Shown piece by piece: positions 2,594 to 24,388 of a stretch of 64,000 bases of DNA (positions are counted from its first letter, which is position 1; every line of letters starts with the position of its first letter). Made by a program: the position numbers and the translations under genes. Origin of the DNA: Candidatus Uhrbacteria bacterium (GTDB lineage: Bacteria; Patescibacteriota; Patescibacteriia; UBA9934; GWF2-40-263); contig JAERTI010000036.1 of assembly GCA_016844925.1 (NCBI GenBank), positions 11,053 through 75,052 on the forward strand. The letters are read 5' to 3'. The notes under the pieces were generated by a model. That model worked only from the letters and a program-made list of their open reading frames with translations, ran no database searches and had not been told where the DNA came from.

Positions 2594-5500
2594 CTATGAA
2601 GTTGGTGCTGGTGGAATATTTGTCAGATCAATATCTGGCTCAAGCCCAACCTCCTGAGAGAAGTCGATGGGCTCGGTGAGTTGTGAGTAGTCGATGGGAC
2701 GAATTTCCATCGGCTTGAATCCTTCTTTTTGGAACGTAGCGAAGTATTTGTTTGGTCCGAGCATGAACGCATAGCGCCCCTTGCTATCAGTAATTTGTGT
2801 CTCGAGTACCTTGTTGTATTTCGGCTCGAAGATACGCGCGACCACACGCGAGAGCGGACGACCTGTGTAGGAGTCGTACACCACACCCCAGCTAATAGGT
2901 TTTCGAGGTCGAGCCAGACGCTTGGCCAAGAAGAATACTCCTAGCTGAATGCCGATCATGCCGAGCGAGAATGGTGTCGGTCGAATGGCACCAAACGCTC
3001 CGGCTGCAAGAACACCTCCGAAGGCCAACACATGCTGAGCCGTGCGCAGCCACTTGCGTCGTATAGCTGTTGTAGACGCTTGCGCCACATCCTGCTGCAC
3101 AGGATCAAGTGGAATGTTGGCTGAGATGACCGCACTAGCGTCCGTCACCTCAATAGGCTCTGAGTGGTAGACATCTAAGTACTGTCCATCCACTTTCTCC
3201 CCTGCTAGATACTGTGATGGGAATTGATATCCCGATTTTGTGACTTGAATGCGATACCTTCCTGTATCAACCAAGAAGAAGTATCGCCCCCCCTTGTCGG
3301 TAACCCGACTCTTGACGAGACGACCAGGTAACCCGGCCGCCTCGTCTTGTTGTGTGACTTGAAAGAGACGTACCACCGCAAGATCCACTGGGGTCTTGGA
3401 GATAGCGTTATAGACGACTCCGTAACTCTTCCTGCGTCTGCGCCAGAAAAAGAGAATTGGCGCTGTGAAAATGTATTGCAGGAATGGAAGGAAATCGAAC
3501 GCGACAGAAAGTACGACCACACTCGCCCCCGCCGTAACAGCAAGTGTGGGAACAGATACTTCTGCGGCCTCTTCTACACCGGGGAGCTCTCGAATGGTTT
3601 CGAGGCCCTCTTGTACTGCCTGGATTGGTTCAAGATCGAGCACGGTCTCGATCACACTAAGAGCAGCTGCCGTGTCATCCACTTCCTCAGCTTCAGGTTC
3701 TTCGTCTTCAGCTTCGGCTTCAATGATTGGCTCCTCGTCCTCTTCCTGCTCGTACGCTGCAAGAACAATGCGAGGATTCACAATCGCATTTGCGACCACA
3801 AGCTGACCCGTGCTTGTAGTCTCAAAGCCTTCTGCTTCGACTTCGACAAGATAGGTGCCGTTTGGCACATACCAAGCGAATGACCCGTCTGAGGAAACGG
3901 TTGTTGGGTTGAACTGGTTATATGGGGACCCATCCCACACCACCTGCTCACCATCAACGATTTCAAAGAGCGTAACGGTTGCGTTTGATACCGTTGTTTC
4001 TTCACCATCGATGACCTGGAGTGCGTAGCCCTGAGAGACAACGCGCAGGTATGAAGAAACAAATTCAGATGAACCATCGTCGTATTCGACTTCTATGATC
4101 ACCTGTTGAATGCCTTTAGCACTCGGTACGGCAACATCCGCGTTGTAAAGAACGCCTGTCTCGTCTAGAGACAGAAGGAATAGATCGCTGCCTATGGACA
4201 GCTGAACGCTGCTAACATCGTCAGCAACTTCTGACACGGGAATCTGCACACTCAACGTGCTTGTGGGAAGCACCTCAACCACACCGGAGCTGGTGGTCTC
4301 GAGCGTAAGAGATCTCTCCGCGACAAGATAACTGATGTCACTATCGGTTAGTTCACCTTCCTCCGCACCCAAGGAGGTAGGTTCACTCACGCTAGGACAA
4401 TCGATTGGACATGAGGCTGATGATTCAGACTCAGAACACACACCGTCTCCACAGGAAACCGCCAGACCTGAAGAGTCGTCTGTCTCTGAGATGTCATCAT
4501 CTCCTGTCACATCACCGGATCCACCTGATTCAGAATCTTCTTCGGACCCCTCCGTAGAATCTTCTTCACCTTCTTCGGTGGCCGGCTCTTCCTCTGAAGG
4601 AACTTCCTCCTCAGAGGGCACCTCTTCTACTGGAGCACTTGGTAACCCAGATCCAAGCGCACCAGAAGCAAACTGCCCTGCTTCATCGTAGGAAAAAACT
4701 CCAAGGTAATAAGTAAGATCAGCTGTTAAACCAGACAACGTCCCTTCTTCAGTAAGATCGTCGAGGCCTGTCGTGCAATCTTCATCTGTTGGACCGTCTG
4801 GATAGTCATCTTCACAAACCAACACGAGAACTCCATCCAAATCTTCATCCGTTGGATTTGTCCAAGACAATGAAAGGGACTCAACGCCGGACTCTACCAG
4901 CAAGTCTGAAACATTTGCCGGTGGCAAATCTTCCTCTGTCGTGAAGGTGTTATCTGCAGAAAACGCTTGATTCGAGAATTTGTCTGTCGAAACAGCTTGA
5001 AAATGATATTCCGTCTCATCATCAAGTCCCGTCAACAAAACAGAGTGTGATGTGACATATTCGCCGTCATATCCAGTAGACTCATAGGTTTCCGTAAGCC
5101 CATAAGAGACCACACTGTTGGCATCTTCATTGGTCGTCCAAGTGATTCGCGCCGAATCATACGTGATATCAATCACTTCAATATCTGAAATAACAGGCGC
5201 TGTTTGATCCAACGTTGTGAACACGAGCGTGTCTGAAATTCCGACATTAGATGCACTGTCAGTTGAATTGGCGTTGAAGTAATAGGTTTCCCCCTCACTC
5301 AACCCAGTCAACGTTAGACTGTGGGATGTCACGAACTCACTGCTGTAGAAGTTATCTAGATCGACATACTCATCTAAACCAATATTCACCCTTGAATCTG
5401 ACGATTCATCGGTTGTCCAACTCACCACAGCCGAAGTTGTGCTCACGGACGAAACCTTGAGTCCAGAGAGTACTGGCGCTGTGGAATCAGGACTTCCGCC

Positions 5501-6097
5501 ACCACCCCCAGTCTCTGGAGGTTCAGGGACTGTTGCCGAAACAGGAATGCTTCCATCCCCATTAATTGGTAAGGCAATGGAACCACGGTCACCAAACGTT
5601 CCAGCAATGGAGATAAAATGCGTGCCACTTGTTACCGGATTAGTAACTTGATTTGCACCCGTTCCGCTTTCTGTGGCATTCGTCCCCACCTCAACGGTAA
5701 CTTGACTTGCCGCCGCAACGGCCCCACCGTCGCCGGCACAGATAGTAATTGTCACTACATCTGAAGCGATTTCAACGGAAGCTTGCTCTGTTCCAGAGCA
5801 GTCTGCAGCCGTAGTCAGATCGACTCCGTCATCAGCCACATCTACATCATCTTCAATGATCGATGATGTATCGAAGGCTGAAGCAAATGTAATCGTTACG
5901 TTTTCACCTTCTGCTATACCTGAAGGAGTTGTAAAGATCAGCTTATGATCCGCAGGAAGGAACGCCTGGAGCGTGGAAGGATAATCATTCCCCGCTGTAA
6001 GCGTCGCTGCTGACACCTGCGAAGCACCCACAATAATCGCCGTTGCAAATACCGCGACTAATAGGATGTTTCGAGTTGTATTGATGAGCGTTCGCAC
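2594..6097 (-). CDS. 1167-aa secreted surface protein. It has a signal peptide, fibronectin-III-like repeats (TAPV.S...VSW.T.E...Y.F), an acidic Ser/Glu-rich linker, and two C-terminal hydrophobic anchors. Each anchor is followed by an Arg/Lys tract and a carboxypeptidase-regulatory/Cna-B-like beta-sandwich domain
   Basis: ORF track protein. Signal peptide MRTLINTTRNILLVAVFATAIIVGASQVSAA; TM segments at ..AGASVVVLSVAFDFLPFLQYIFTAPILFFWRRRRK and ..VLAFGGVLAAGAFGAIRPTPFSLGMIGIQLGVFFLAKRLARPRKP. It is the same operon as the flanking genes, with gaps of only 3-6 bp. Confidence 0.8.
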   Translation of the reverse strand: MRTLINTTRNILLVAVFATAIIVGASQVSAATLTAGNDYPSTLQAFLPADHKLIFTTPSGIAEGENVTITFASAFDTSSIIEDDVDVADDGVDLTTAADCSGTEQASVEIASDVVTITICAGDGGAVAAASQVTVEVGTNATESGTGANQVTNPVTSGTHFISIAGTFGDRGSIALPINGDGSIPVSATVPEPPETGGGGGSPDSTAPVLSGLKVSSVSTTSAVVSWTTDESSDSRVNIGLDEYVDLDNFYSSEFVTSHSLTLTGLSEGETYYFNANSTDSASNVGISDTLVFTTLDQTAPVISDIEVIDITYDSARITWTTNEDANSVVSYGLTETYESTGYDGEYVTSHSVLLTGLDDETEYHFQAVSTDKFSNQAFSADNTFTTEEDLPPANVSDLLVESGVESLSLSWTNPTDEDLDGVLVLVCEDDYPDGPTDEDCTTGLDDLTEEGTLSGLTADLTYYLGVFSYDEAGQFASGALGSGLPSAPVEEVPSEEEVPSEEEPATEEGEEDSTEGSEEDSESGGSGDVTGDDDISETDDSSGLAVSCGDGVCSESESSASCPIDCPSVSEPTSLGAEEGELTDSDISYLVAERSLTLETTSSGVVEVLPTSTLSVQIPVSEVADDVSSVQLSIGSDLFLLSLDETGVLYNADVAVPSAKGIQQVIIEVEYDDGSSEFVSSYLRVVSQGYALQVIDGEETTVSNATVTLFEIVDGEQVVWDGSPYNQFNPTTVSSDGSFAWYVPNGTYLVEVEAEGFETTSTGQLVVANAIVNPRIVLAAYEQEEDEEPIIEAEAEDEEPEAEEVDDTAAALSVIETVLDLEPIQAVQEGLETIRELPGVEEAAEVSVPTLAVTAGASVVVLSVAFDFLPFLQYIFTAPILFFWRRRRKSYGVVYNAISKTPVDLAVVRLFQVTQQDEAAGLPGRLVKSRVTDKGGRYFFLVDTGRYRIQVTKSGYQFPSQYLAGEKVDGQYLDVYHSEPIEVTDASAVISANIPLDPVQQDVAQASTTAIRRKWLRTAQHVLAFGGVLAAGAFGAIRPTPFSLGMIGIQLGVFFLAKRLARPRKPISWGVVYDSYTGRPLSRVVARIFEPKYNKVLETQITDSKGRYAFMLGPNKYFATFQKEGFKPMEIRPIDYSQLTEPIDFSQEVGLEPDIDLTNIPPAPTS

Positions 6098-11845: not shown

Positions 11846-14494
11846 TTATTCCAACCCTTTCATTTCTCCCCAATTTTTCCCAACTTCCACATCTACCTTT
11901 AGCGGCACATCGAACTCTGCCACACTTTCCATCATCTCCCTTAGCCCCTTAGCCACAGCATCCACCGCATCCTTGTCGCACTCCAGCACCAGTTCGTCAT
12001 GCACCTGCAAGAGCACCTTTGCGGGCCACTCACTTGTCTTGAGCCAGCCTCCCACTGCGAGCATAGCTTTCTTCATGAGATCTGAGGCCGTTCCTTGTAG
12101 CGGATGATTAACCGCCATACGCTCTGCAGCTGAAACGAGCATGGGGACACCACTTTCAATCTCAGGCACGTAGCGTCGGCGTCCAAACAATGTTTCAACA
12201 TACCCCTGCGCATGTGCCAACGCTTTCGTTTCTTCAATGAAATCGCGTACCGCTGTGTGGATCTCAAAGTATTTCGCAATGAATTCCTTTGCCTCGGAAA
12301 AACTCAGCCCAGTAGAACGTGCCAGTGCCCGAGGTCCCATGCCATACATGATCCCAAAATTGATCGCCTTGGCTGCACGACGCTGATCCTTCGTCACATC
12401 CTCCTCAGCAACCTCCCACACCTCTGCGGCCGTACGTGTGTGAATATCTGCCCCCTCCCGAAATGCCTGGATGAACGGCTTGTCTTTTGCTAGCACGGCA
12501 ATGAGACGCAATTCGATCTGACTGTAATCAGCAGCGATGAGACGCTTGCCACGTGGCGCCACGAACGCCTTGCGAATTTCTCGTCCGAGCTCTGTCTTGA
12601 TGGGAATGTTTTGCAAATTCGGTTCAGAAGAAGACAGGCGCCCCGTTGCCGCCACTGCCTGGTTGTACGTCGTGTGTACGCGCCCATCGCTCGCCACCAA
12701 CTTTGGCAGCGCCTCCACATACGTCGATTGCAACTTAGCCAACTCACGATACTTTGCGATCAACGGCACGATCTCATGCTCATCCCACAACTTCTCGAGC
12801 TCACTAGCCGCCGTAGAATATCCTGTCTTTGTTTTCTTAATTCCTTTTGTCGGCAACTCCAACTTCTCGAAAAAAATGACTGCTAACTGTGAAGGTGAAT
12901 TCAAATTGAACTCTTCTCCCGCAAGCTTTGTCACCTTCTTAATGAGGGAACTAATTTGCTTCGCCAAACTTTTCTGAAATATCGCAAGAGATTCTGTGTC
13001 GAGCATGATCCCCTCAACCTCCATCTGGTAAAGCACCGGCACCAGAGGCATCTCGATCTTGTCGAATACATCTTCCTGCCCAGCCTCTTTCAGGGCCTCA
13101 CGCATCTTCTTGGCCAAACGTGGGAGCGTAGCTGCCACCTGACCCAGTCGCTGATAATCCTTTTCCTTTGCAAACGCCTGGGGGATCTCCGGCACTTTCT
13201 CTTCTAATTGTCGATGCACAACGGAAGAGAGCTCATGTGTCCGCGAACCGGCGTGAAGCAAGTAGCTGGCAATCATGACATCAAACGTCGGTGTGCTGAT
13301 CCGTTTTTCGATTTGATGCATGAGGTGTTTTGCGTCGTGTGTCACCAGGAGCCCAGCCCCCAAGAGGGTCTCAAACACCTGCTCCACGGTCTCCTTAGAC
13401 GGATTCACCAGCACACTCGTTCGGCTCCCATCTGAGATAGCTAAAGCGGCCATGGTCGCGCCAAATAAATCTGCAGGTTGTTCTGCGATCAGAACCCCCA
13501 CGGGGCTATCAAATTTCTTCGCTGAATAGTCTTGCCCAGATCGAACAATCTCAACATGACCAACGGGCTCGCCCTCACCATTCTCCAGTGGTGGAGGTGG
13601 AAGCTCGCGTGCACCATGAACGTCCCCGTGCTTACGCAGAAGCGTTCGAAACTCTAAATTCCGATACAAGGGCAACAGCGCCTCATAGTCAGGAGGACTC
13701 ATCTTAGCCTGAGGAAAACGGAACCCCGTCTTCACATCCCGAACAATTGTCACAAGCGTTTTAGATGTTTCGACCTCCTCCTCAAACCCGCGGAACTTCT
13801 TCGCAAACTTCTCCGGCACCTCTCCACGCTCGATAGCATCATAAATACCCTCTACGGTCTCATGAGCCTGAAGCAATGTCGTAGCCGTCTTGTCTCCTAC
13901 TCCCTTGAGCCCAGGAATATTATCGCTCGAGTCTCCACGGAGCGCCTTATAATCGATTACCTGCTCCGGTGTAAGACCATACCGCTCGTGCACGGCCTCC
14001 CGGTCGTAAATCTTTGTCTGACTAATACCTTTTACAAAAAACACGACGTGCACGTCGTCGTCTACAAGCTGCAAGGCATCGAGATCTCCGGTCACAATCA
14101 ATGTCTTGTACCCTTTCTTGCTAGCTCTGGTGCTAAGCGTCCCGATGATGTCATCAGCCTCATATCCCTCAGCCTCAAGACAAGGAATCCCAAAGGCTTC
14201 AAGAATCTCTTTAATAATATCAATCTGATCGTACAGCTCCTGCTCCTTCTCTTCACGCCCGGCTTTATACTCCTCGTAAATCTCATTACGGAACGTCCCC
14301 CCAGGAAGATCCCACGCCACAGCCATGTAATCAGGCCGGTACGTCTCGATCATCTTTTCTGTGATCATGGCAAAGCCATAGGCGGCATTCACCACCAAAC
14401 CATCCTTGGTAGTAAGGGGAGGTAAAGCGTGCCACGCACGGTGCAACAGTGCGTTGCCGTCTAGTACTAAAAATGTAGGTTTTTTATCAGTCAT
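11846..14494 (-). CDS. polA: DNA polymerase I
   Basis: 5'-3' exonuclease N-terminus (MTDKKPTFLVLDGNALLHRAWHAL..) and polymerase motifs (..RRAAKAINFGIMYG.., ..LQVHDELVLE..). The start was moved to the ATG at 14494, downstream of the ORF-track start. Confidence 0.9.
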   Translation of the reverse strand: MTDKKPTFLVLDGNALLHRAWHALPPLTTKDGLVVNAAYGFAMITEKMIETYRPDYMAVAWDLPGGTFRNEIYEEYKAGREEKEQELYDQIDIIKEILEAFGIPCLEAEGYEADDIIGTLSTRASKKGYKTLIVTGDLDALQLVDDDVHVVFFVKGISQTKIYDREAVHERYGLTPEQVIDYKALRGDSSDNIPGLKGVGDKTATTLLQAHETVEGIYDAIERGEVPEKFAKKFRGFEEEVETSKTLVTIVRDVKTGFRFPQAKMSPPDYEALLPLYRNLEFRTLLRKHGDVHGARELPPPPLENGEGEPVGHVEIVRSGQDYSAKKFDSPVGVLIAEQPADLFGATMAALAISDGSRTSVLVNPSKETVEQVFETLLGAGLLVTHDAKHLMHQIEKRISTPTFDVMIASYLLHAGSRTHELSSVVHRQLEEKVPEIPQAFAKEKDYQRLGQVAATLPRLAKKMREALKEAGQEDVFDKIEMPLVPVLYQMEVEGIMLDTESLAIFQKSLAKQISSLIKKVTKLAGEEFNLNSPSQLAVIFFEKLELPTKGIKKTKTGYSTAASELEKLWDEHEIVPLIAKYRELAKLQSTYVEALPKLVASDGRVHTTYNQAVAATGRLSSSEPNLQNIPIKTELGREIRKAFVAPRGKRLIAADYSQIELRLIAVLAKDKPFIQAFREGADIHTRTAAEVWEVAEEDVTKDQRRAAKAINFGIMYGMGPRALARSTGLSFSEAKEFIAKYFEIHTAVRDFIEETKALAHAQGYVETLFGRRRYVPEIESGVPMLVSAAERMAVNHPLQGTASDLMKKAMLAVGGWLKTSEWPAKVLLQVHDELVLECDKDAVDAVAKGLREMMESVAEFDVPLKVDVEVGKNWGEMKGLE

Positions 14495-14586
14495 GTGAGC
14501 ACAGTGTACCGCACCGAGGGATTGACAAAAAGGGATAATTCCAACAACATCGAAACGTTCCAACACGGGAACGGAAAGGTGCTCTC

Positions 14587-14901
14587 ATGCGCTATCTGCG
14601 ATGGTACTTGCGTAGCCTCTTCACCATCTTCCTCGGGCTGTACATGGTCAGCATGCCCACCATCCTGAGCCTCAAGCTCATAGACGGTTGGCCCTGGTGG
14701 ACGCTGACGATCCTCACGGCCGCAGTCGGCCTGATCAGCGGCATTCTCGCACTCTTCGGTCTGTTCAGTGGAGAATGCATCCCCACCTCCGAGGACGATG
14801 ACTGGTTCCTCGGCACCATCGTTCACACGGGTGTACACACCTACATCGGCGCCATCATCTTGATCGGACGCTACGCCTGGATCGGACTTCAGGCCAGCTA
14901 G
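14587..14901 (+). CDS. GC-rich small integral membrane protein (104 aa, 2-3 TM)
   Basis: ORF track. TTGACA at ~14523, RBS GGAAAGG, and terminator CCGCGTACGCGG+TTTTTTCTTTT at 14905-14930. Confidence 0.55.
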   Translation: MRYLRWYLRSLFTIFLGLYMVSMPTILSLKLIDGWPWWTLTILTAAVGLISGILALFGLFSGECIPTSEDDDWFLGTIVHTGVHTYIGAIILIGRYAWIGLQAS

Positions 14902-15006
14902 CTCTCAACCGCGTACGCGGTTTTTTCTTTTATGTTACCTGAGATAAACGCATTGACACTCCCTTTATAAGCCGCTAACGTGCCTGCGCCCTCAAAGGAG
15001 AATGTC

Positions 15007-15642
15007 GTGGAATTCTTGATTACCCACCTCACAGGCGTCGAGCCCCACTCGGAGCCTCTCACCCCCGAAGCCGTAGACCAACGTCTGCAGCAAGATCGGG
15101 TGATGTGGTTCATCACCAAGAGAATCGGTGATGGGTGCCGGACGCACGTCCTGTTCCCCAGCACCGTGCCCTCCGCACTGCACGCCGAGCCGGAACAGAT
15201 GCATCCGCCCGATTACAAGAACCTGACCAAGTTGGTCCAGGCGCTCTACCCGGGAAGCCGTCACCGTCGAAGCGTTCAGGGAGGACTCCTGAAGATCGGC
15301 GCGGACGGAAGCGACTGCTGGCGTCTCTCCGCAATCACCAAGCCCGACGAGCCCTGCGCCTCGCGCTACAACGACGTCTGGGCCCTGCACCTGATGCACC
15401 AGTGCGGCCGCATGGTCTGCGTCCGCTCGCCAAACGATCCGGTGGTGGTCTGCAGCCCGGAGGGACTGCACCTGAGCCCCGGCTTCGACGAGGCCGGCAT
15501 GACGCGCTGGACCAGTGAGCAGTTCCTGCACCTGGCCTTCCAGGAGGCCGCGCGCAAGCTCGGACAACGCTTCCAGCCCGTGCCGCTGGATATCAACGAC
15601 AAGGGGAAGGTGACCAAGTACCTCCTCGTCACTCAGGGCTAA
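15007..15642 (+). CDS. GC-rich hypothetical protein (~211 aa); likely GTG start
   Basis: ORF track 14980..15642; AAAGGAG-N6-GTG at 15007; TTGACAC promoter at ~14950; terminator CCGTGTC..GACACGG+TTTTTTATTTTT at 15643-15675, bidirectional and shared with trmB. Confidence 0.5.
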   Translation: MEFLITHLTGVEPHSEPLTPEAVDQRLQQDRVMWFITKRIGDGCRTHVLFPSTVPSALHAEPEQMHPPDYKNLTKLVQALYPGSRHRRSVQGGLLKIGADGSDCWRLSAITKPDEPCASRYNDVWALHLMHQCGRMVCVRSPNDPVVVCSPEGLHLSPGFDEAGMTRWTSEQFLHLAFQEAARKLGQRFQPVPLDINDKGKVTKYLLVTQG

Positions 15643-15669
15643 ACGCCTCCGTGTCTGTGACACGGTTTT

Positions 15670-16443
15670 TTATTTTTCTGGCTGATCAGCTTTAGACCAC
15701 ACCAAATCAAAAAGGGTCTTGTACGTCCGCGCTACATCACCCGAGGCAAGGATGATCATGGCGTTCTCTCTTCGAGTTGTAATAAATGCAACCTGATCAG
15801 CAAAGATAATAACCGTCGCTGGAAGATCAACATCCTTTGGCAGGAAACGCGACTCTCGCAACTCATTGATATCTTTCTCAACAATCTTCCGCGTGGCTCG
15901 ACTCTCAGGAATGAGTTGTTTTGAATGAATCCCTCGTTTTTTTCTTTCAGAAATAATCCGATCAACAAGGTAGGGCTCTTTTACATAATCAAGGAGCCCA
16001 ACCCCAGATGTAATCAAGCGATACTCTTTCACTTCCGACTCCAACAACTGTTTCCACAAGCGCTTAAACCCGTCCGTCCCTTCATAAAACGTCACACCCG
16101 GACCACCACGAGCCGTCTCCTGAAGGAGCTCTAGTGCTGGAACCGTTTTCTCAACCAAGCTCTCTCGCTCACGCATTTGCTCTTCTAAACGTCGCGGGGA
16201 CTCAGCGATGTACACGGTCGTCTTCTTCTCTTTACCGACACGAAACACTCCACGACGACGGAGTCGCTCCAAAATAGGGTAGAGCGTTGTGCGGGGTAGG
16301 CGTGTACGGCGTGAAAACTCCAGGACGCTCGCGCTCCCTAACTCAAGCCCTGCCAAATAAATCTTCGCCTCTTTTTTGTCGAGCCCGTAGGCCTGAAGGC
16401 CTTTCATGAGCTCGGAAGGATAGTGCATACGCATAGTAACCAT
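15670..16443 (-). CDS. TrmB-family transcriptional regulator
   Basis: N-terminal winged HTH (LQAYGLDKKEAKIYLAGLELGSASVLEFSRRTRLPRTTLYPILERLRRRGV) plus the TrmB C-terminal domain. GC is moderate, unlike its flanks. Confidence 0.75.
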   Translation of the reverse strand: MVTMRMHYPSELMKGLQAYGLDKKEAKIYLAGLELGSASVLEFSRRTRLPRTTLYPILERLRRRGVFRVGKEKKTTVYIAESPRRLEEQMRERESLVEKTVPALELLQETARGGPGVTFYEGTDGFKRLWKQLLESEVKEYRLITSGVGLLDYVKEPYLVDRIISERKKRGIHSKQLIPESRATRKIVEKDINELRESRFLPKDVDLPATVIIFADQVAFITTRRENAMIILASGDVARTYKTLFDLVWSKADQPEK

Positions 16444-16559
16444 AGGGTCTCACAGCCAGATGGGGGAGTCAAAAAGTTGTCGAAAATATCGTCAGATCTC
16501 CTGGGCAAATTTTTTTGGTCACGTAGTGTGATTATAGGTCATTCACAAAGGAGGCTCGC

Positions 16560-17270
16560 ATGAACTGCTATGTTCACGATCGTGGCCACCGCAGACAGGT
16601 TGCCGGACTCACCCCACATCTTGCCCGCACACATCGTGAAGGCACCCCTATGGATCCAGCTCTCATGTCTCCACTGGATGCGGCCACCTGCCACTGGGCC
16701 GGATGGCGCTTCGGTAAGGGAGTCAGCAGGGGAGAGACGCACGTCTTTGCCATGGCTACGGAGCTCACCTCCGGTCAGCATGCCGATATGGTCCAGGGCT
16801 TCGATCACGTCGATCCTCCACAGGGGTGCTACCACCACAGGTACCGTGTGCACGGCTTCGGTGGATTCCTGCGTTGGGTGTACTTCGCTCATCAGGGCGA
16901 TGCTGTCCTGGGCGTAGACTGGAGCCTGGCTGAGCGTGAGAACGCCGGCGTGGCCCTGTCCATGCTCGATGTGCACCGCCTTGCCGGATCGCTCATCGAT
17001 GCCGGAGCTAACCCCTCCACCACCCTTGCCCTGCTGAACCCGCAGATGTGCGAACCAGCAGAACTCGCTGCTTGGCGTCGTCACCACGGATTGAACACCT
17101 TGCGCGATTGGAGATGTGCCAGAGCCATCCTTGCCCCACACGGCATCCTTTGCGGACGTTGCGGATTGAAAACATTTGTTAGCCCCTGCGCGCGCTTCTG
17201 CGAGCAGTGCGGCGCCCCCAAACACTTGGTTGAGGAGCCCACCCATGGCTTGGAAAACGACCTCCCCTGA
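16560..17270 (+). CDS. GC-rich hypothetical protein with C-terminal zinc-ribbon (CGRCG...CEQCG)
   Basis: Promoter plus AAAGGAGG-N5-ATG at 16560. The antisense ORF 16539..17246 is rejected because it lacks signals and has antisense-like composition. Confidence 0.5.
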   Translation: MNCYVHDRGHRRQVAGLTPHLARTHREGTPMDPALMSPLDAATCHWAGWRFGKGVSRGETHVFAMATELTSGQHADMVQGFDHVDPPQGCYHHRYRVHGFGGFLRWVYFAHQGDAVLGVDWSLAERENAGVALSMLDVHRLAGSLIDAGANPSTTLALLNPQMCEPAELAAWRRHHGLNTLRDWRCARAILAPHGILCGRCGLKTFVSPCARFCEQCGAPKHLVEEPTHGLENDLP

Positions 17271-17613
17271 CTACTGCTTTCATGCGCAGCCCTCGGGACC
17301 ACCTCCCAAGCCTGCGGACACCTACTGCTGCAAGTGCGGTAAGAAGTACGGACACTCAGCCCGCTTCTGCGCCGCTTGTGCCAGGCCGCGCGGCGAGATC
17401 TCGCTGGTCAAGAACCTCATCCCCACACAGTGTGGGGAGTGCAACAAGTCCGTGGAGTCTGACGACAACTACTGCGGCCACTGCAGGACCCCCGTCGACA
17501 AGAGTTGGAAGGAAGTTCCTGCCTGCTCCTGCGGCACTCTGCTTGAGCCCAACGCCCAGTACTGCGGTGCCTGCGGCAAGTCCGTTCCCGGCGCAAGAAA
17601 GGAAGCGTCATGA
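17245..17613 (+). CDS. GC-rich tandem zinc-ribbon protein (three CxxC-N-CxxC ribbons)
   Basis: GAGGAG-N7-ATG at 17245; CCKCG..CAACA, CGECN..CGHC, CSCG..CGACG. It overlaps the upstream ORF end by 26 nt and the downstream start in an ATGA. Confidence 0.55.
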   Translation: MAWKTTSPDYCFHAQPSGPPPKPADTYCCKCGKKYGHSARFCAACARPRGEISLVKNLIPTQCGECNKSVESDDNYCGHCRTPVDKSWKEVPACSCGTLLEPNAQYCGACGKSVPGARKEAS

Positions 17614-17945
17614 TCCTCGACCTGCCTGCACGTCTTCTGGTCTACGCGGCCCTGCACTTCATCGGGGACTTCCCGTTCCAGAGCACCTGGATGGTCATGG
17701 AAAAGGGTAAGAGCTGGGAGATCATGCTCTACCACTGCCTGACCTACACGGCCCCCTTTGCCCTGATGGTCCTCGTACCCTCCATGGCGGACGCAGTCAC
17801 GATGCAAGGCCTCGCCTTCGTCTGTCTGAGCCACATGGTGGTCGACACCCTCAAGGCACGCTACAAGGTGATCAAGGAAATCTGGGTCGACCAGCTCCTG
17901 CACGTCGCCACCTTCGTCTTCTGTGTCGCTGTCGGCTGGCTGTGA
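17610..17945 (+). CDS. GC-rich small membrane protein (111 aa, 3 TM), translationally coupled to the zinc-ribbon gene
   Basis: ATGA overlap at 17610-17613, then terminator CCCCGATACGCATCGGGG+TTTTTTTT at 17950-17985. Confidence 0.55.
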   Translation: MILDLPARLLVYAALHFIGDFPFQSTWMVMEKGKSWEIMLYHCLTYTAPFALMVLVPSMADAVTMQGLAFVCLSHMVVDTLKARYKVIKEIWVDQLLHVATFVFCVAVGWL

Positions 17946-18099
17946 CACGCACACCCCACCCCCGATACGCATCGGGGATTTTTTTTGTGCAAAATAAATA
18001 CCCGCACTTGCTTCCGAAGAAGTGTAGTGCGGGGGAGTGGAGCCACGCGCTGGCTACACACTCAGTGCCCGACGTGCATCAGGCGGGTGTCCTGTCGGA

Positions 18100-19209
18100 C
18101 TAGGCCGCGAAGCGGTTCTCGCTCGCCGCCTCGACCATCTTGGCCACCTGCAGGCCGTAGGGCTTGTCGGTGTCCAGGTTGGTCGGGAAGAAGGACACGG
18201 CGTTCTCGCCGCCGTTGGTGTCGATCTCCTCGATCAGGCCGGCCGTGTGGCTGGCGCGGGTGATGCGGGGCAGCTCGACGTCCTCGCCCAGGTCGGCCAC
18301 CTTCACGCCGAAGGCGCTGTGGGGGATGAGCTGGATGGTGTCGTCGTCGATGCCGACGCTCACGGGGATCGCGGCGTACTCGCCGTCGTCCAGGGACAGG
18401 ATGAAGTTGTCGGTGTTGTCGACGCCCAGGGAGATCTCGGTCACGTTGCCCGGGGTCTGGAACTCGGCCCAGGCCAGCTCGTCCATCTCGCCGGAGAGGT
18501 ACTTGCTGATCTGCTCGGCGCTGACCACGTTCACCACGTTGGTGCCGTAGACGGACTCGAGCAGGAAGCGCGGGGAGTTGGCGTTGACCAGGGTGTTGTC
18601 GACGGTGTCGACGAAGTCGGAGCCGATGACCTTGTAGGACTCCGTGTCCTTGGAGATCATGCCGACCTTGGTGCGGACGCTGTCGCGGCCGATCAGGAGC
18701 AGCGTGGTCGCCTCGTTCTCGGAGCCGACGATGGTGCGGGTCTCGGAGTCGACGTACTGGTCGAAGCGCGCCTGCATGGCCCGCTCGGTCCAGCTGCCCT
18801 CGTAGTCCTGGCCCCAGACGCCGAAGTCGACGTTCTGGTCCATGGCGGTCACGGCGAAGCCGTAGCGCCAGTTCTTGCCCTTGTAGCGGCTCAGCAGCTC
18901 GGTCTTGTCGAGCGTGGCCTGGGCCTCGGTCAGGGACATGCCCTCGGGGGTGTCGACGATCGCGACGATCTGCCGCTTGTGGTCGCTGGCCTTGCTGTCC
19001 TCGCTCAGCTTGAGCGAGTTGTCGCCGTCGGCCACGATGGCCACGGGGTTCAGGCCCTGGTCCTGGATGAAGTCGGTCACGTGGTCGAACTGGCCCTCGA
19101 CGGCCAGGAGCTTGACGCCGCTCTTGTCCTCGTAGGTGTCGAGCTTGAGCGAGCCGATCTTCGGCTTCGTGGCGGCGAGGAGGGCGAGCGAGATGACGAT
19201 CCGGTTCAT
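18100..19209 (-). CDS. GC-rich secreted hypothetical protein (~369 aa) with signal peptide MNRIVISLALLAATKPKIGS
   Basis: ORF track 18100..19287, trimmed to the Met before the signal peptide. Promoter TTGACA..TATAGT at ~19300-19330 with a ~120-nt 5' UTR. The + strand 402-aa ORF 18037..19245 is antisense junk (G/V/D/H-rich). Confidence 0.6.
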   Translation of the reverse strand: MNRIVISLALLAATKPKIGSLKLDTYEDKSGVKLLAVEGQFDHVTDFIQDQGLNPVAIVADGDNSLKLSEDSKASDHKRQIVAIVDTPEGMSLTEAQATLDKTELLSRYKGKNWRYGFAVTAMDQNVDFGVWGQDYEGSWTERAMQARFDQYVDSETRTIVGSENEATTLLLIGRDSVRTKVGMISKDTESYKVIGSDFVDTVDNTLVNANSPRFLLESVYGTNVVNVVSAEQISKYLSGEMDELAWAEFQTPGNVTEISLGVDNTDNFILSLDDGEYAAIPVSVGIDDDTIQLIPHSAFGVKVADLGEDVELPRITRASHTAGLIEEIDTNGGENAVSFFPTNLDTDKPYGLQVAKMVEAASENRFAA

Positions 19210-19471
19210 TGGGAGTTCTCCAGTGTCCGCAGGCGGTTTGGTTGATGCCTTTGGACGTCTCTGCACACCAGTGAACTGCACTGGCACAGTGTTGCCCGTA
19301 TTCGGGACGAACGGCGGGAATACTATAGGAACCCTCTTAGGGTGTCAAGAGATCTGCCCGGGGATAAGTATTTAGCCCTTGTTTTAGGAAAAAAATCGGT
19401 TTTTCTCAGTAAAGTGATTAAGTGCAACGTTTTTACCTCAACGATGAAAAGCGATGCTACAATAAACTTCT

Positions 19472-20554
19472 ATGAAAGACCTTCTTATCCTCCTTGGCAT
19501 CGCCGGACTGCTAGTCGCTTTATTTACCGGCGCCATTTGGGCCGGCTCACGCATGAGCCAGACTCCAGATCTAGAAACAACCCAAACTATAGAACCCGAA
19601 GGAGCACCTGAGCTCCCATACCTGGGAACCATGCCTCCTATAGAAGGTATAGACGGTTGGATTAACAGCAACCCCTTAGTCCAAGACGACTTAGCTGGAA
19701 AAGTCATCCTCATCGACTTCTGGACATACAGCTGCATCAATTGCATCCGCACCCTCCCATATATCCAGTCCTGGCAAGAGAAGTACGCAGACGACGGCCT
19801 GGTCATCCTTGGTGTCCACGCACCAGAGTTTAATTTTGAAAAAGTGTATGAAAACGTTTTGGCAGCTGCTGTGCAGTACGGCCTCACGTACCCCATTGCT
19901 CAAGACAACAACCACACCACCTGGCGGAACTTCAACAACCGGTACTGGCCCGCCAAGTATCTCTTCGACCAAGACGGCAACCTGCGCTACTACCACTTTG
20001 GCGAGGGGAGTTATGAGGAGACCGAAGCCGCCATTCAACAACTCCTCTCTGTCAAAGAAGAAATGACCGAGGAGCTGGCCGTCGATCGTTCTGGCATCAA
20101 CTCTCCCGAGACCTACTTTGGCTACTGGCGCACAGAGAACTTTGCGAGCCCTGAAGGAGTCGTCGAGGACACCCCCACCACCTATACCAACCCGCAGACC
20201 CTCCCACTCAACCATTGGTCGCTCTCAGGCGACTGGTCTATTGAATACCAACACAGCGAGGCGCAAACCTCTGGCGCACGCTTTGCCTTTCACTACAGTG
20301 CCGGCGTTGCGAACCTCGTCATGGCCACGGCAGACGGCACGCTCCAAGACATTGTCGTCTACCTAGACGGCCAAGCGGTCCCAGCAGAACTCCTGGGCGC
20401 CCACACCGTCCGTGACGAGCTCACCGGCGGCACATTCATCCAAGTAGAGTTCTCAGATCTCTACGAACTCATCGCCGGAGAGCCTGGTGAGCACCTTCTA
20501 GAGATCGAGGTCCTTGAACCAGGCCTGCAGATCTACGCGATCACTTTCGGTTGA
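19472..20554 (+). CDS. Membrane-anchored thioredoxin-like (TlpA/DipZ-type) thiol-disulfide oxidoreductase with CxxC (WTYSCINCIR) and a C-terminal beta-rich domain
   Basis: ORF track; redoxin motif recognised by eye. Confidence 0.65.
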   Translation: MKDLLILLGIAGLLVALFTGAIWAGSRMSQTPDLETTQTIEPEGAPELPYLGTMPPIEGIDGWINSNPLVQDDLAGKVILIDFWTYSCINCIRTLPYIQSWQEKYADDGLVILGVHAPEFNFEKVYENVLAAAVQYGLTYPIAQDNNHTTWRNFNNRYWPAKYLFDQDGNLRYYHFGEGSYEETEAAIQQLLSVKEEMTEELAVDRSGINSPETYFGYWRTENFASPEGVVEDTPTTYTNPQTLPLNHWSLSGDWSIEYQHSEAQTSGARFAFHYSAGVANLVMATADGTLQDIVVYLDGQAVPAELLGAHTVRDELTGGTFIQVEFSDLYELIAGEPGEHLLEIEVLEPGLQIYAITFG

Positions 20555-20617: not shown

Positions 20618-21883
20618 GTGACGCAGAAGCTGTTCTATCCAGACAAGGCGCTGAACTTCAGGCCGCTTCCGGAAGTGATGACCCTCATCACCAAGATGGG
20701 GCAGGAATTTAGGCGCCAGACTGAGGTGATTCACCTCCACGAGGACGACGCCTTCTACTTCGCCTACCTCCACACCTACCAGAGCCCTGACGCTCTAGGT
20801 TCGATGGAGTTCAATCAGCGCATGTCCAGATTCGTCGGCCTCGCCGTCGATATCGTGGAGCTCATGATCCGAGAGCACTTCCGCCCCATGGGCGACCTTC
20901 TCTCACTTCACAGCGACATCGCCAACTGCCTCGAACCCATCGAGCTGCTCATCATCGCCACCACCGACCCGGGTGCTGGCGCTTCCCCCCTGGACTTCAG
21001 AAGGCACTTCGAGGCGAGACGGAACCTCGCCATCGCCCTGCAGATCTACGAGATCGAGAAGTGTGACCCAGAGTACTGGGTCGCCAAGGACCTCAGGCAC
21101 ATCGAACAGCTCTGCTGGGGGCGCCTCTTCCTTCGCGGTGTTTCACAGACCATCTGGTTTACCACGCAAATCCCGGAGGATGGGAAGAGTCCCTGCAACA
21201 ACATCAAGCTCGCGTTTGCCAAAAGGCGCGCCAACCGCTTCAGAAGAGAATTCGATCCGACAAAGGGGCCCGTCATGGTCTCGTCCATGATGTGCCGCGT
21301 CGTAAGAATCTCGCGGAATCGTCGACTCATCATCTACGTCGTCAACCGCCGCAAGCGCATCTTCTCCACCCTGCTCAAGATGGAGCGTGGACGAGAACTG
21401 CGTGACCGTCGCGGGTGGAAGTACGTGGTTGTAGGGGTACAGACTGGCAACAAGATCCGCCCTGCCAAGCGAAGCGACGCGGAAGCGTTTGTTGCCTTCA
21501 CGCAAGAGCAACTCTGGAATCCACCTCTGTTCCACGAACCCGACGAATCCGCAGAGAACCCTGACAGCGACAAGGACTACTGGGACCGCAAGATCGTCGG
21601 TCGTTACCATCGAAAAGACAACGGTCGAGTCGTGGGCGCTGCCACCGAACAGCTGGTCACCACCATCCGTGACCATCTCAGCGACAAGTACTCACGAAGC
21701 AATCGCAACCACGAGATGTATCGACACCTTCAGGTGCTCAACCACCTCGGCCCTCTCTGGTTCCCCTCCACACGAGAGCACCTCCAACACCTCAAGTCCG
21801 TCCGCCTCCCAGGCTACGGCGTGAACTGGTACGGCCCCGCCACCAGGGAGACGCTCTGGAACTGGTGGCTCAGCCAGCTCTGA
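20618..21883 (+). CDS. GC-rich hypothetical protein (421 aa), GTG start
   Basis: TTGACG-N17-TAAAGT at 20552-20585; GAGGAG-N5-GTG; terminator CCCGCTTACGCAAGGCGGG+TTTTTTG at 21890-21915. No confident domain assignment. Confidence 0.5.
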   Translation: MTQKLFYPDKALNFRPLPEVMTLITKMGQEFRRQTEVIHLHEDDAFYFAYLHTYQSPDALGSMEFNQRMSRFVGLAVDIVELMIREHFRPMGDLLSLHSDIANCLEPIELLIIATTDPGAGASPLDFRRHFEARRNLAIALQIYEIEKCDPEYWVAKDLRHIEQLCWGRLFLRGVSQTIWFTTQIPEDGKSPCNNIKLAFAKRRANRFRREFDPTKGPVMVSSMMCRVVRISRNRRLIIYVVNRRKRIFSTLLKMERGRELRDRRGWKYVVVGVQTGNKIRPAKRSDAEAFVAFTQEQLWNPPLFHEPDESAENPDSDKDYWDRKIVGRYHRKDNGRVVGAATEQLVTTIRDHLSDKYSRSNRNHEMYRHLQVLNHLGPLWFPSTREHLQHLKSVRLPGYGVNWYGPATRETLWNWWLSQL

Positions 21884-21972
21884 GCCCCACACCCCCGCTT
21901 ACGCAAGGCGGGTTTTTTGATTGACAACCATGTAAGAAACAACTACGTTGACCACCCTGAACAGGAGAAAGG

Positions 21973-22296
21973 ATGGATCGGTTACAAGAGCTGGATGACC
22001 AGCTCTACGCACTTCACCATGACCATGTGCTTCACGGTGCCACGCTCGTCGAACACCACGAAGACGGCACGCAGTCGCGTGGACGTATCAGCAGCACAGG
22101 ACACGGATACGGTGAACTCGGACTATGGTGGCACAACGAAGATGATCGTCATCGACAGGCCTGCCTGAGTCACAGCAGCTGGAACTTCTCCAGAACGGGG
22201 AACGAGATTCGTTTCAGTAGGACTGGCCCTGACCGGAGAAGCTTCGACATCCCCCCCGGGGACGTCAACCTCTACGTCATCACCATCGCGGACTAG
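21973..22296 (+). CDS. GC-rich small hypothetical protein (107 aa, His-rich)
   Basis: TTGACA-N17-TACGTT immediately after the upstream terminator; AGGAGA RBS; terminator ending TTTTTTCTTTT at ~22300-22330. Confidence 0.45.
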   Translation: MDRLQELDDQLYALHHDHVLHGATLVEHHEDGTQSRGRISSTGHGYGELGLWWHNEDDRHRQACLSHSSWNFSRTGNEIRFSRTGPDRRSFDIPPGDVNLYVITIAD

Positions 22297-22391
22297 CACC
22301 ACGCCCAATACGGGGCGTTTTTTCTTTTATTCGCTTCCTGCTGGCGCTCTTTGCTTTCACCCGGTACAGTGATTTTAAGGAGGTAACACAC

Positions 22392-23306
22392 ATGCGTCAC
22401 GTGTACCTGGCTGCTCTTGGCACGCTCTGCCTGCTCCTCACCAGCTTCCACATCCCGAAGGACTCCACCCTGGAGCTCGGCGTGGAACACGCGAGCACCA
22501 GCGACAACGCGACGAGCCGCACCACGCGGCAGCAAGACGAGATGCTGCAGACCCTCGTCTCCCTGGCTACATACAAGCAGCGCTTGGAAGAAGCCTGCGA
22601 GGCGTTCCTGATCTCAGACGCCACGTCCGAAGATCTCTCCGCGCTCCTCACGGTCGCCGGCTCTCACCGCGACCCCGCCGCCGTCTTCGTACGTTGCGGC
22701 CTGGAAGAAGATGATGTCGAGGATCTCTTGATGAGCATGCTCAGTGACCGCATCGAGGAAGGGGACCGAGAGGCCTCCCGCATCGCCTTCGCCCTGGCTG
22801 GCACACAGTGTTCCCAGACGCCGCTACAGATCGACCGCGAGTGCGAAGACGCCGCCGATGAACTGGAGTGGCCCGTGACTCGCTGGCGCTCTTGCATCAA
22901 GGACGGCTACAGCAGCTACAAGCAGTGCAGCCTCGACGTCCTGACCGAGCACGGCGTGAGTGCCACCAAGGTGGAGGACGCTTACTTTGGCAAGTACGCC
23001 AAACAGACCAGCGACCTGGTGCACGCAGCCAAGGACGGAAGCGCCGACCCTCACGAGGTCGTCGACGAACTCATGCGCCGCGCCGAAGATCGCGTCCTGA
23101 TCGAGACCATGGGCACGGGTGCCATGGGCGCCTCCAGCTACATGATCTTCGCCCTCTCCCAGAACCTGAAGTTCCAGGGCGAGACGGAACTCCAGGAAGA
23201 GATGCAGCCCCTGCTCGACTTCTGGATCCACCGCTGCGACCTGGACCAAACCGGAGCCCTAGACGACCACGAAGTAGACGACATCCAACTCGCCTACAAC
23301 GACTGA
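22392..23306 (+). CDS. GC-rich secreted hypothetical protein (304 aa; signal peptide, acidic, Cys-containing)
   Basis: TAAGGAGG-N8-ATG; terminator GACCCCCTGAGGGTC+TTTTTCTTTTTT at 23306-23335. Confidence 0.5.
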   Translation: MRHVYLAALGTLCLLLTSFHIPKDSTLELGVEHASTSDNATSRTTRQQDEMLQTLVSLATYKQRLEEACEAFLISDATSEDLSALLTVAGSHRDPAAVFVRCGLEEDDVEDLLMSMLSDRIEEGDREASRIAFALAGTQCSQTPLQIDRECEDAADELEWPVTRWRSCIKDGYSSYKQCSLDVLTEHGVSATKVEDAYFGKYAKQTSDLVHAAKDGSADPHEVVDELMRRAEDRVLIETMGTGAMGASSYMIFALSQNLKFQGETELQEEMQPLLDFWIHRCDLDQTGALDDHEVDDIQLAYND

Positions 23307-23385
23307 CCCCCCTGAGGGTCTTTTTCTTTTTTGTTTAATCCCTGCCAACCAAACAAAAAGCCCTCGCTTTCGCGAAGGCTTTCTG

Positions 23386-23402
23386 TGGGGCGGCTAACGG
23401 GA
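23386..23402. repeat. 17-bp exact direct repeat of the 3' end of tRNA-His (TGGGGCGGCTAACGGGA = complement of ..CCCGTTAGCCGCCCCA), 151 bp downstream of the gene; att-like scar
   Basis: Identical string at 23554-23570 inside the tRNA gene. Confidence 0.7.
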
Positions 23403-23553
23403 GTCTCACGTCGCTTCGCTCCTCCAGGGGCTTGTGCCCCTAGGACGGCCTCCGGCCTGTACCCCCAGCATGTAAGGGGGTATCCCCCTTACCATCCCCC
23501 GTTCGATTCCCATTAGCCAACAGAAAACCCCCGATAAATTCGGGGGTTTTCTA

Positions 23554-23630
23554 TGGGGCGGCTAACGGGAATCGAACCCGTAATACCAGTACCACAAACT
23601 GGTGTGATAACCGTTTCACCATAGCCGCCA
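23554..23630 (-). tRNA. tRNA-His (anticodon GTG) with encoded G-1 and CCA
   Basis: Manual fold: G-1, acceptor GCGGCTA/TAGCCGC, C73, anticodon stem CCAGT/ACTGG with loop TTGTGGT. A hairpin terminator CCCCCGAATTTATCGGGGG lies at ~23527-23552. Confidence 0.8.
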
Positions 23631-23668
23631 TGGCTTGTTGAGGTTCAACGGAGCCAAGAATAGCAGAA

Positions 23669-24388
23669 CTATTCGATGGAATCAAGCATTGAATCAAGCT
23701 CGAATGTATCAGTGATCGCCTTTGCCTCAAGGAGCGCCGCCTCTGCCTCTTCTGAGTAACCGACGGTAGCCATGAGGATCCATGCATGTTCGCCATCATC
23801 TATATACTGAGACCTCACAGCTGGAGCTTCTCCGTCTCCGGAACATGGCTTTTTACACCCCCACTCGAGAACATAGCCATCCCGTCCCTTAAACTCACCC
23901 GGGGTCAAACTCTGATAAATGTCACTTGCTGTGATCCCAGCATTTGGAGAATCTGGATTCGCCTGAATATTCTCCACTGCTTCTTCAAGTGTCTCCTTGG
24001 ACGTAGAAAACTCTGTCACCACTTCATCGAAACTTCGCTCACCTTTTTCAATATCGAATATCCTCAAGAACACAGGGCTCTCGGTAAGGGGCACTTCTGG
24101 ATCTGCGTTCACGACGGTACTGCGGATAAGCATGCCATTTGCTCCACGTGGGTACACAATCGATTCTAGAATGTGCCAATCAACAGGCACGACCATGGAA
24201 TACCCATCCCCGCGCACGAGCGTCTCATCTTCTGCGTCGCGCTCGAGCTCTGATTCATAAACAAGACCCTGTGACTCTTGTTGATCTGTTGAGTCTTCCG
24301 TGTCTCCCCCCGTCCAAATGACAACTCCCACAACAAGCAGAACAAGAATGGCGGCACTTAGCAGGTATGATCGATTATCAAATTTCAT
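23669..24388 (-). CDS. Membrane-anchored acidic extracytoplasmic protein (239 aa), tandem paralog of the next gene
   Basis: N-terminal TM; shared motifs with 24395..25213 (VVP.DW, C..(P/A)C, W(I/V).(I/L)(M/T).(V/T)GY, A.A..DTFEL). Confidence 0.6.
   Translation of the reverse strand: MKFDNRSYLLSAAILVLLVVGVVIWTGGDTEDSTDQQESQGLVYESELERDAEDETLVRGDGYSMVVPVDWHILESIVYPRGANGMLIRSTVVNADPEVPLTESPVFLRIFDIEKGERSFDEVVTEFSTSKETLEEAVENIQANPDSPNAGITASDIYQSLTPGEFKGRDGYVLEWGCKKPCSGDGEAPAVRSQYIDDGEHAWILMATVGYSEEAEAALLEAKAITDTFELDSMLDSIE

Follow-up and report, generated by a model that had tools for sequence, protein, structure and literature searches.

A zinc-ribbon operon and a gene with G/C-saturated third codon positions at a polA-linked locus of Candidatus Uhrbacteria

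In a 64,000-nucleotide stretch of a Candidatus Uhrbacteria genome (contig JAERTI010000036.1, positions 11,053 to 75,052, here called the window), three overlapping reading frames, encoding two predicted zinc-ribbon proteins and a small membrane protein, face a convergent gene for a protein of 369 amino acids (aa). The locus raises the question of whether the overlapping frames are genes at all and, if so, whether the 369-aa gene belongs with them to a single system. Our reading, in which our confidence is evenly balanced, is that the locus holds two independent units: an envelope-associated zinc-ribbon operon, which would be controlled by a TrmB-like regulator, and a gene under synonymous selection, whose product would be highly expressed and exported or envelope-bound. 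The saturation of third codon positions in the latter is the most unusual feature of the interval and went unremarked in the original prediction, which had been made from the sequence alone.

Besides this locus, the window contains polA, holA, rpsT, rmuC, pnp, tig, dnaA and the gene for an H+-pyrophosphatase. Its PolA is 55-69% identical to PolA from metagenome-assembled genomes (MAGs) of Candidatus Uhrbacteria, with other Patescibacteria ranking lower. The same sequence is found in NCBI and Logan assemblies, and a sister lineage with about 92% nucleotide identity is represented by at least nine independent contigs (ENA, JGI, Logan); on these grounds we consider the window sequence natural and reproducible. 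Comparisons were made to the sister lineage (L002), to the loci L006, L007, L008, L013, L014, L016 and L076, of which L013, L014, L016 and L076 are from Uhrbacteria, to homologues of the first operon gene, ORF1 (P0015-P0018), and to members of the 369-aa family whose N-termini were compared (P0019-P0032).

The zinc-ribbon operon and its coding strand

The operon comprises the following features:
16560..17270, plus strand: ORF1, 236 aa, with stop codon TGA at 17268-17270 and the Shine-Dalgarno sequence GGAGG at 16550-16554
17245..17613, plus strand: ZR, 122 aa, with its ATG at 17245, three zinc ribbons and a match to Pfam DZR
17610..17945, plus strand: DUF3307 membrane protein, 111 aa, Pfam PF11750, with the motif HFIGDFPFQ
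17960..17987, plus strand: intrinsic terminator of the operon, a seven-pair hairpin (17960-17977) followed by ATTTTTTTT (T8)

Consecutive genes overlap by 26 nt (ORF1 and ZR) and by 4 nt (ZR and DUF3307; ATGA, 17610-17613), and a plausible Shine-Dalgarno sequence precedes each of the three. These coordinates and overlaps, as given in the original prediction, agree with the list of open reading frames (ORFs), with a check of the sequence and with public gene calls, which list the same three genes. The common terminator that had been predicted is present after DUF3307, and the predicted richness in G+C is evident from a GC content of 0.60-0.62 for the operon, compared to 0.49 for the TrmB-like gene and 0.51 for polA.

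The original prediction had also indicated how the operon could dissolve. A minus-strand frame, 16539-17246, is open over its full length in both the window and the sister lineage, and if it were the real gene, ORF1, and by extension the operon, would be its antisense shadow. Base composition cannot settle the matter, because the G+C contents of ORF1 at first and third codon positions (GC1 0.67, GC3 0.66) are nearly equal, making the two strands alike. Substitutions relative to the sister lineage, however, when read in the plus frame, number 9/6/24 at codon positions 1/2/3, an excess at third positions, as opposed to 23/4/7 in the minus frame. Further, the plus-frame protein has four distant homologues (P0015-P0018; E-values 1.7e-48 to 2.5e-24, 38-45% identity), of which one comes from a Candidatus Paceibacterota MAG. 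The ORF1 alignment (A1) shows 35 columns without variation, among them H74, D85, C90, D120, E165, C198 and C201, and the C-terminal CxxC...CxxC is conserved. The minus frame, on the other hand, is open only in the window and the sister lineage and is interrupted by 2-5 stop codons in L006, L007, L008 and L013; its protein is missing from a collection of 15 billion proteins. Given the substitution phase, the plus-frame homologues and the closed minus frame in distant relatives, the antisense explanation fails, and we assign it a practically negligible probability. The ratio of non-synonymous to synonymous divergence (dN/dS) from the sister lineage is 0.19 for ORF1, 0.26 for ZR and 0.08 for DUF3307. 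Together, these results show that the operon consists of real genes, ORF1, ZR and DUF3307, which overlap translationally on the plus strand.

ORF1 is a new family restricted to the candidate phyla radiation (CPR), with a conserved globular region and, at the C-terminus, a zinc ribbon of the type CxxC-N-CxxC (CGRC-N13-CEQC in the window). It has no family match in Pfam, NCBIfam, PHROG or PADLOC, and profile searches against PDB sequences and Pfam found the zinc ribbon only, with the N-terminal 190 residues matching no family or solved structure. Taken alone, ORF1 is below the DZR threshold (E-value 0.45); four of six family members give weak DZR matches, and C198 and C201 are invariant. In L013 (8585-9037, minus strand) and L076 (4888-5328, minus strand), paralogues of about 146-150 aa, which correspond to the C-terminal half of ORF1 with its zinc ribbon, directly adjoin TrmB, suggesting that ORF1 is built from two modules.

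ZR, whose start (MAWK/MAYK) is kept in the sister lineage and in L013, matches Pfam DZR (PF12773) with an E-value of 4.4e-10 and 40 bits (gathering cut-off 27.3). Three Cys4 units are visible, laid out as CxxC/CxC-N10-CxxC, and homologues are found as a double ribbon in L008 (pairwise E-value 4e-6) and in L013 at 36% identity. The assignment of both proteins as zinc-ribbon proteins was therefore correct. The third protein had been described as having three transmembrane helices; it is indeed a membrane protein, belonging to Pfam DUF3307 (PF11750; E-value 3.6e-13, 50.1 bits, gathering cut-off 23, residues 15-105) and matching phrog_2470 (E-value 6.9e-18), and its hydrophobic segments (~1-22, 42-65, 67-81 and 91-111, by Kyte-Doolittle only) allow for three or four helices. 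It has the N-terminal motif H-x3-D-F-x2-Q and carries His and Asp residues in its hydrophobic segments, and its relatives include 124 actinophage records. Of the three operon proteins, one thus belongs to a new family and two to families that are described but have no known function.

Linkage to a TrmB-like regulator and the role of the operon

Upstream of ORF1 lie two further features:
15670..16443, minus strand: TrmB-family winged-helix regulator (Pfam TrmB, PF01978; E-value 6e-11, 42.5 bits, cut-off 25.6)
16467..16496, no strand: candidate operator in the spacer between TrmB and ORF1 (AGTCAAA..GTTGTCGAAA), with a putative operator role

The regulator had been placed across a bidirectional terminator from the operon. 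In fact it lies head-to-head with ORF1, and the supposed terminator is a hairpin at 15649-15665, between TrmB and a gene for a 220-aa protein, with a T-run on one side only. In the TrmB-proximal part of the spacer, four Uhrbacteria loci have AGTCAAA and GTTGTCGAAA without any change. Only L076 has a perfect dyad, GTTGTCGA-N5-TCGACAAC; the dyad is degenerate in the window, where a repeat search found no inverted repeat in the TrmB-ORF1 spacer. The TrmB-like gene has a dN/dS of 0.05 relative to the sister lineage, and orthologues with 66-68% identity adjoin ORF1-family genes in L013 and L076.

Pairs of operon genes recur outside the window. In L006, an ORF1 homologue shares 4 nt with a DUF3307 gene, whose product is 36% identical to that of the window; in L008, the double zinc-ribbon protein homologous to ZR is encoded next after an ORF1 homologue; and in L013, which represents the same chromosomal site, ORF1 and ZR overlap by 11 nt. 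Between polA on one side and the 369-aa gene, or the gene in its place, on the other, the TrmB-like gene is accompanied by at least one operon gene in the window, the sister lineage, L013, L076 and the P0019 contig, whereas TrmB and all operon genes are missing from this interval in the P0020 contig, L014 and L016. At this locus, gain and loss of the operon genes thus go along with gain and loss of the divergent TrmB-like gene. As the genes are real and their linkage recurs in L006, L008 and L013, the original description as a membrane-associated zinc-ribbon system of unknown role is a fair label.

From this arrangement we infer that the TrmB-like protein would control the operon via the conserved spacer element. 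ORF1 and ZR, as soluble zinc-ribbon proteins, would be made in fixed proportion and may dock on the His/Asp-bearing DUF3307 membrane protein, such that the trio would constitute a small accessory envelope-associated module for sensing or for membrane-embedded metal-dependent chemistry. Several points weigh against this scenario. Complex formation and TrmB control are argued from gene order alone, and none of the three operon proteins has a functional annotation. The AlphaFold2 model of ORF1, computed from six sequences, reached a mean predicted local distance difference test score (pLDDT) of 43 and is unusable. A promoter scan of the 116-nt spacer between TrmB and ORF1 found no sigma-70-like site, so that the shared promoter of the original prediction is not borne out. 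Finally, linkage is conserved in other genomes for pairs of genes, but all three occur together only in the window and its sister lineage.

The module could also be of a mobile nature, i.e. a phage-derived moron, a defence system or an exclusion system, rather than a housekeeping envelope complex. DUF3307 is classified in PHROGs as "moron, auxiliary metabolic gene and host takeover" and is frequent in phage records, as mentioned above; moreover, the operon is patchily distributed in close relatives, is adjoined by an insertion sequence (IS) element in the sister lineage and is of atypical composition. Yet no PADLOC model matches ORF1, ZR or DUF3307, no phage structural or integration genes adjoin the operon (the closest integrase is about 8 kb away), the low dN/dS values of ORF1 and DUF3307 indicate purifying selection, and the operon is always found at the same chromosomal site next to TrmB. 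We therefore consider a mobile module unlikely and continue to favor an envelope-associated operon. In this setting DUF3307, which is widespread, common in actinophages and without an assigned function, gains a reproducible context of zinc-ribbon proteins and a TrmB-like regulator. This is of interest because genes without a known function make up most of the genomes of CPR bacteria (Patescibacteria), whose envelope proteins are essentially uncharacterised.

Two insertions are found next to the operon and its regulator. In the sister lineage, an IS1595-family transposase gene (L002 11326-12114) sits exactly between the two convergent terminators that follow DUF3307 and the 369-aa gene (corresponding to 17960-17988 of the window); the spacer between them therefore tolerates insertions. 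In the window, a segment of 425 bp (14511-14935), which is missing in the sister lineage, has its own terminator-like hairpin (14907-14922) and contains an ORF (14587-14901) for a protein of 104 aa with a GC3 of 0.82 and two to three hydrophobic segments, which is a singleton cluster among 15 billion sequences. The GC-rich pair of a membrane and a hypothetical protein that had been proposed at 14587-15642 consequently stands only in part, as this 104-aa ORF was its membrane protein.

The 369-aa gene and its third codon positions

The 369-aa gene forms a transcription unit of its own:
18100..19209, minus strand: gene of the 369-aa acidic protein, GC3-saturated, with a short N-terminal hydrophobic segment
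17990..18035, minus strand: terminator hairpin of the 369-aa gene, a stable hairpin (18001-18033) followed by a T-rich run on the minus strand
19210..19313, minus strand: putative 5' leader of about 105 nt, given by the distance from the promoter-like site to the ATG
19320..19348, minus strand: predicted promoter TTGACA-17-TAGTAT, with 10/12 matches to the consensus

The promoter-like site is the only one of its kind on that strand in 5.2 kb. Its CTTGAC is invariant and its -10 element kept in five further loci, two of which encode non-homologous proteins. Rfam has no family in the interval, at either gathering or E-value thresholds, and the leader does not fold significantly better than shuffled sequences (z -1.5; z -1.7 for a second 5' leader), for which reason we do not claim a structured leader. 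The title of the original prediction had called the gene divergent; it is convergent to the operon, as stated elsewhere in that prediction. Homologues adjoin polA, TrmB, DUF3307 and a thioredoxin-like gene in other Uhrbacteria contigs. The 369-aa gene is an old, position-conserved gene of the clade that stands outside the zinc-ribbon system.

All codons of this gene, including the TAG stop codon, end in G or C (370/370; GC3 1.000), at ordinary values for GC1 (0.60) and GC2 (0.38) and in a genome with about 54% GC. Its effective number of codons (Nc) is 25.5, compared to 40-51 in other genes. The orthologue of the sister lineage has a GC3 of 0.997, with one A/T-ending codon. Between the two, 23 of the 24 third-position differences are exchanges of C and G, a type that accounts for 9% of them in polA and 8% in Trx, and there is a single transition where about 67-74 would be expected from the density in polA or Trx. 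Synonymous divergence (dS) is 0.066, roughly ninefold lower than in polA (0.57) and Trx (0.61), whereas non-synonymous divergence (dN) is 0.052, equal to that of Trx. Per G/C third site, C-G exchanges are about as frequent as in the neighbouring genes; the gene has therefore diverged for the same time as these and its low dS does not result from a recent transfer. At the level of sequence comparison, this shows a gene-specific, long-maintained purifying selection against A/T-ending codons.

A further ORF of 402 aa, antisense to the gene (18037-19245, plus strand), is a by-product of this saturation, because without A or T at the third positions of the sense strand the reverse-complement frame has no stop codons.

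In principle, the saturation could be neutral: at a hot spot of recombination, local mutational bias or GC-biased gene conversion might have produced it. Indels and an IS insertion attest to recombinational activity at the locus, and dS is also lowered in ORF1 (0.14) and DUF3307 (0.10). But the effect is confined to third positions and ends at the gene boundaries, as seen from the low GC2 and the AT-rich flank at 19350-19470. Moreover, the codon set is specific (GGC 27 versus GGG 0, CGC preferred over CGG, no AGR and no TTG), which is not expected from a pure bias towards G and C, and non-homologous genes that occupy this position in genomes with 46-54% GC show the pattern as well. A neutral origin thus appears very improbable to us. 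Independently of this, genes that adjoin each other differ by a factor of about six in their dS relative to the sister lineage (16560-17945 versus 11846-14566 and 19472-20554), with further values of 0.42 for ZR and 0.27 for TrmB, and dS falls roughly as GC3 rises, which could reflect synonymous constraint in several GC3-rich genes or mosaic recombination.

The codon trait extends beyond the species pair, to two homologues of the 369-aa protein and to two genes at the same position:
L009, homologue: 33-36% protein identity, GC3 0.948, neighbouring gene 0.68
L010, homologue: 26% protein identity, GC3 0.987, AT-rich flanks
L016, 8934-9845, same position, no detectable homology: GC3 0.993, locus GC 54%
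L014, 5748-6650, same position, no detectable homology: GC3 0.87, locus GC 46%

The genes in L016 and L014 are located directly upstream of polA and have the promoter, the leader and the N-terminus of MN plus a hydrophobic stretch seen in the window gene. Comparison of their products to the 369-aa family nevertheless revealed no detectable homology (hmmsearch E-value 0.04, hhalign probability below 1%). A restricted codon set, with GGC only for Gly and without GGG, AGR or TTR, is common to all these genes. In L016, a second, unrelated ORF of 182 aa without a Pfam match (5205-5753, plus strand; GC3 0.92) lies about 3 kb upstream of the GC3-saturated gene.

These similarities lead us to propose, tentatively and as a rather unlikely possibility, that Uhrbacteria have an expression cassette next to polA, composed of a promoter, a leader and an export-like N-terminus, whose body diverges or is replaced while always retaining G/C-ending codons. 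If true, this would reveal a strong and undescribed synonymous constraint tied to the locus or its function and not to a protein family. Candidate causes would be a dedicated decoding regime or the need to shield an mRNA of exceptional longevity from ribonucleases or toxins directed at A/U, and the gene would probably encode the major surface protein of these ultra-small cells.

The saturation could alternatively be a sign of recent horizontal gain, with the GC-rich genes of the window, including the 369-aa gene, retaining the unameliorated composition of a high-GC donor. Every gene without a Pfam domain that we tested in the window has a GC3 of 0.74-1.0, whereas Pfam-annotated housekeeping genes (polA, pnp, H+-pyrophosphatase, tig, dnaA, a comM-like gene, an M23 peptidase gene and rpsT) range from 0.36 to 0.67. 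Further, the interval from polA to the 369-aa gene gains and loses genes, as seen in the IS1595 insertion of the sister lineage and the strain-specific insert of 425 bp, and DUF3307 is common in actinophages of high-GC hosts. For the 369-aa gene, however, GC1 and GC2 match those of native genes, and the gene keeps its place among Uhrbacteria with PolA identities of only 55-69%. A GC3 of 0.95-1.0 persists in homologues of 26-36% identity, whereas foreign DNA would ameliorate, and the substitution spectrum indicates that A/T-ending codons are actively removed. Finally, an exhaustive phmmer search of 1.8 billion representatives found no homologues outside a handful of CPR-like contigs. We thus regard horizontal gain as an improbable explanation for the GC-rich genes as a group; for the operon it is possible. 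Selection on synonymous sites remains our preferred explanation for the 369-aa gene, which represents a clean natural case of near-absolute synonymous selection where weak selection on codon usage would be expected, and in which the constraint persists while the protein changes beyond recognition.

The split into two compositional classes of genes is seen across the window (e.g. 20618-23306, 30616-31590, 41624-42196 and 48479-59021), and the finding that lineage-specific genes are richer in GC than core genes is the reverse of the usual trend. The last of these segments is a continuous block of about 10.5 kb with 61-67% GC, just upstream of trigger factor and dnaA, with seven large ORFs that have neither a Pfam match nor similarity to each other; it may be an integrated element. 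Elsewhere, the sister lineage has a PIN/MazE-like toxin-antitoxin pair called between genes for proteins of 304 and 239 aa (L002 5588-6218), which is not among the called genes of the window lineage (~23300-23700), where a tRNA-His gene is found instead.

As to the protein, a word-indexed search matched only the 369-aa protein itself, while the phmmer search gave 18 homologues with 22-48% identity, mostly 330-425 residues long (four are fragments or longer). An alignment of the closer family members had no matches in genome or metagenome contigs. We considered whether this hyper-divergence could be produced by a diversity-generating retroelement and rejected the idea, because no second copy of more than 42 nt turned up when the gene was compared to the whole window by sensitive blastn. 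A match to GajA in PADLOC (14 bits) is noise. The AlphaFold2 model (pLDDT 84.6, predicted template modelling score 0.83) shows an N-terminal α/β domain, a β-rich C-terminal half and a terminal helix. This predicted fold has no close structural match and is not a closed β-propeller of 4-8 blades. The protein has a net charge of -29 and no cysteine, and its N-terminus consists of MNR, a hydrophobic stretch of 10 residues and TKPK. A similar N-terminus is also found in P0019-P0022 and, as mentioned, in the same-position genes of L014 and L016.

We propose that the product is likeliest a very highly expressed, fast-evolving exported envelope protein. We base this on the promoter, on codon bias and composition, on an N-terminus that is conserved ahead of a hyper-divergent body, and on analogy to S-layer genes. 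S-layer and other major surface genes of Gram-positive bacteria and Thermus have strong promoters, long stabilising 5' leaders and biased codons, and their products are acidic, Cys-free and rapidly diverging. By analogy, the 369-aa protein could be the most heavily expressed exported or envelope (S-layer-like) protein of the cell, its surface diversifying while selection on synonymous sites, acting on translation, on mRNA stability or on both, would maintain expression.

A number of observations speak against this proposal. The N-terminal segment is short, without a clear AxA cleavage site, and is missing in P0023-P0032 and in the syntenic homologue of L013, which has a GC3 of only 0.61. Searches of Pfam and NCBIfam (E<0.1) found no domain of any kind in the protein, and hence no SLH, CWB2 or other wall anchor. 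Trigger factor and H+-pyrophosphatase, which are presumably well expressed, favor GCT, GGT/GGA, CCA and GTT, so that the restriction to G/C-ending codons cannot be taken simply as an extreme case of the usual expression-linked bias of the genome. Ribosomal protein S20 has a GC3 of 0.55. The original prediction of a convergent, secreted protein holds for the gene, which is real and has its own terminator; judged from the sequence, secretion is no more than plausible, the hydrophobic stretch comprising only about 10 residues and being missing in distant homologues. We also observed that the closer family members (18100-18111 in the window, P0009, P0019 and P0020) carry ...LAA or ...FAA at their C-termini, behind a conserved helix (M-I/V-x-A-A...). 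The last residues of the ssrA tag are similar; such an ending could mark unexported protein for proteolysis, or it may be a coincidence.

If the product is the major surface protein, it would open a way to the cell surface of a lineage not yet in culture, and the locus could serve as a marker in typing strains; should the constraint act on the mRNA, it would bear on how high expression is reached in slow-growing, ribosome-poor cells.

Comparison with known systems

The regulator shares with TrmB-family proteins the N-terminal TrmB winged helix, and here it is combined with a divergent operon and a conserved spacer element. It differs from the characterised sugar-sensing members, TrmB and TrmBL1, in scoring 19-25 bits against NCBIfam equivalog cut-offs of 600-650, and in lacking adjacent sugar-transport genes. 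ZR, with its three CxxC-N10-CxxC units and its DZR match, resembles the small DZR/zinc_ribbon proteins (PF12773, PF13240), which are generic metal-binding modules without an assigned role; the N-terminal 190 residues of ORF1 have no match to a family or a solved structure. The third protein agrees with DUF3307/phrog_2470 proteins in its match above the curated threshold, the H-x3-D-F-x2-Q motif and the presence of several hydrophobic segments. No member of this family has a known function, and we found no description of DUF3307 translationally coupled to zinc-ribbon proteins and paired with a TrmB-like regulator.

For the codon usage of the 369-aa gene, the closest parallel is the bias caused by translational selection, with which it has in common the very low Nc, the avoidance of GGG, AGR, CGG and TTR, the preference for NNC codons and the depressed dS. 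Unlike such bias, the trait is absolute here, with 0/370 A/T-ending codons at about 54% GC, the choices for Ala, Gly, Pro and Val oppose those of trigger factor and H+-pyrophosphatase, and it is kept across non-homologous genes at the same position.

In comparison to S-layer systems, the 369-aa protein is small and without an SLH or CWB2 anchor, its distant homologues lack the N-terminal segment and its leader is not predicted to be unusually structured. What nevertheless recalls S-layer genes is the conserved, near-consensus promoter, the putative leader of some 105 nt, the gene's own terminator and its extreme codon bias, and the protein is, like S-layer proteins, acidic and Cys-free, with a conserved export-like N-terminus and a hyper-divergent body.

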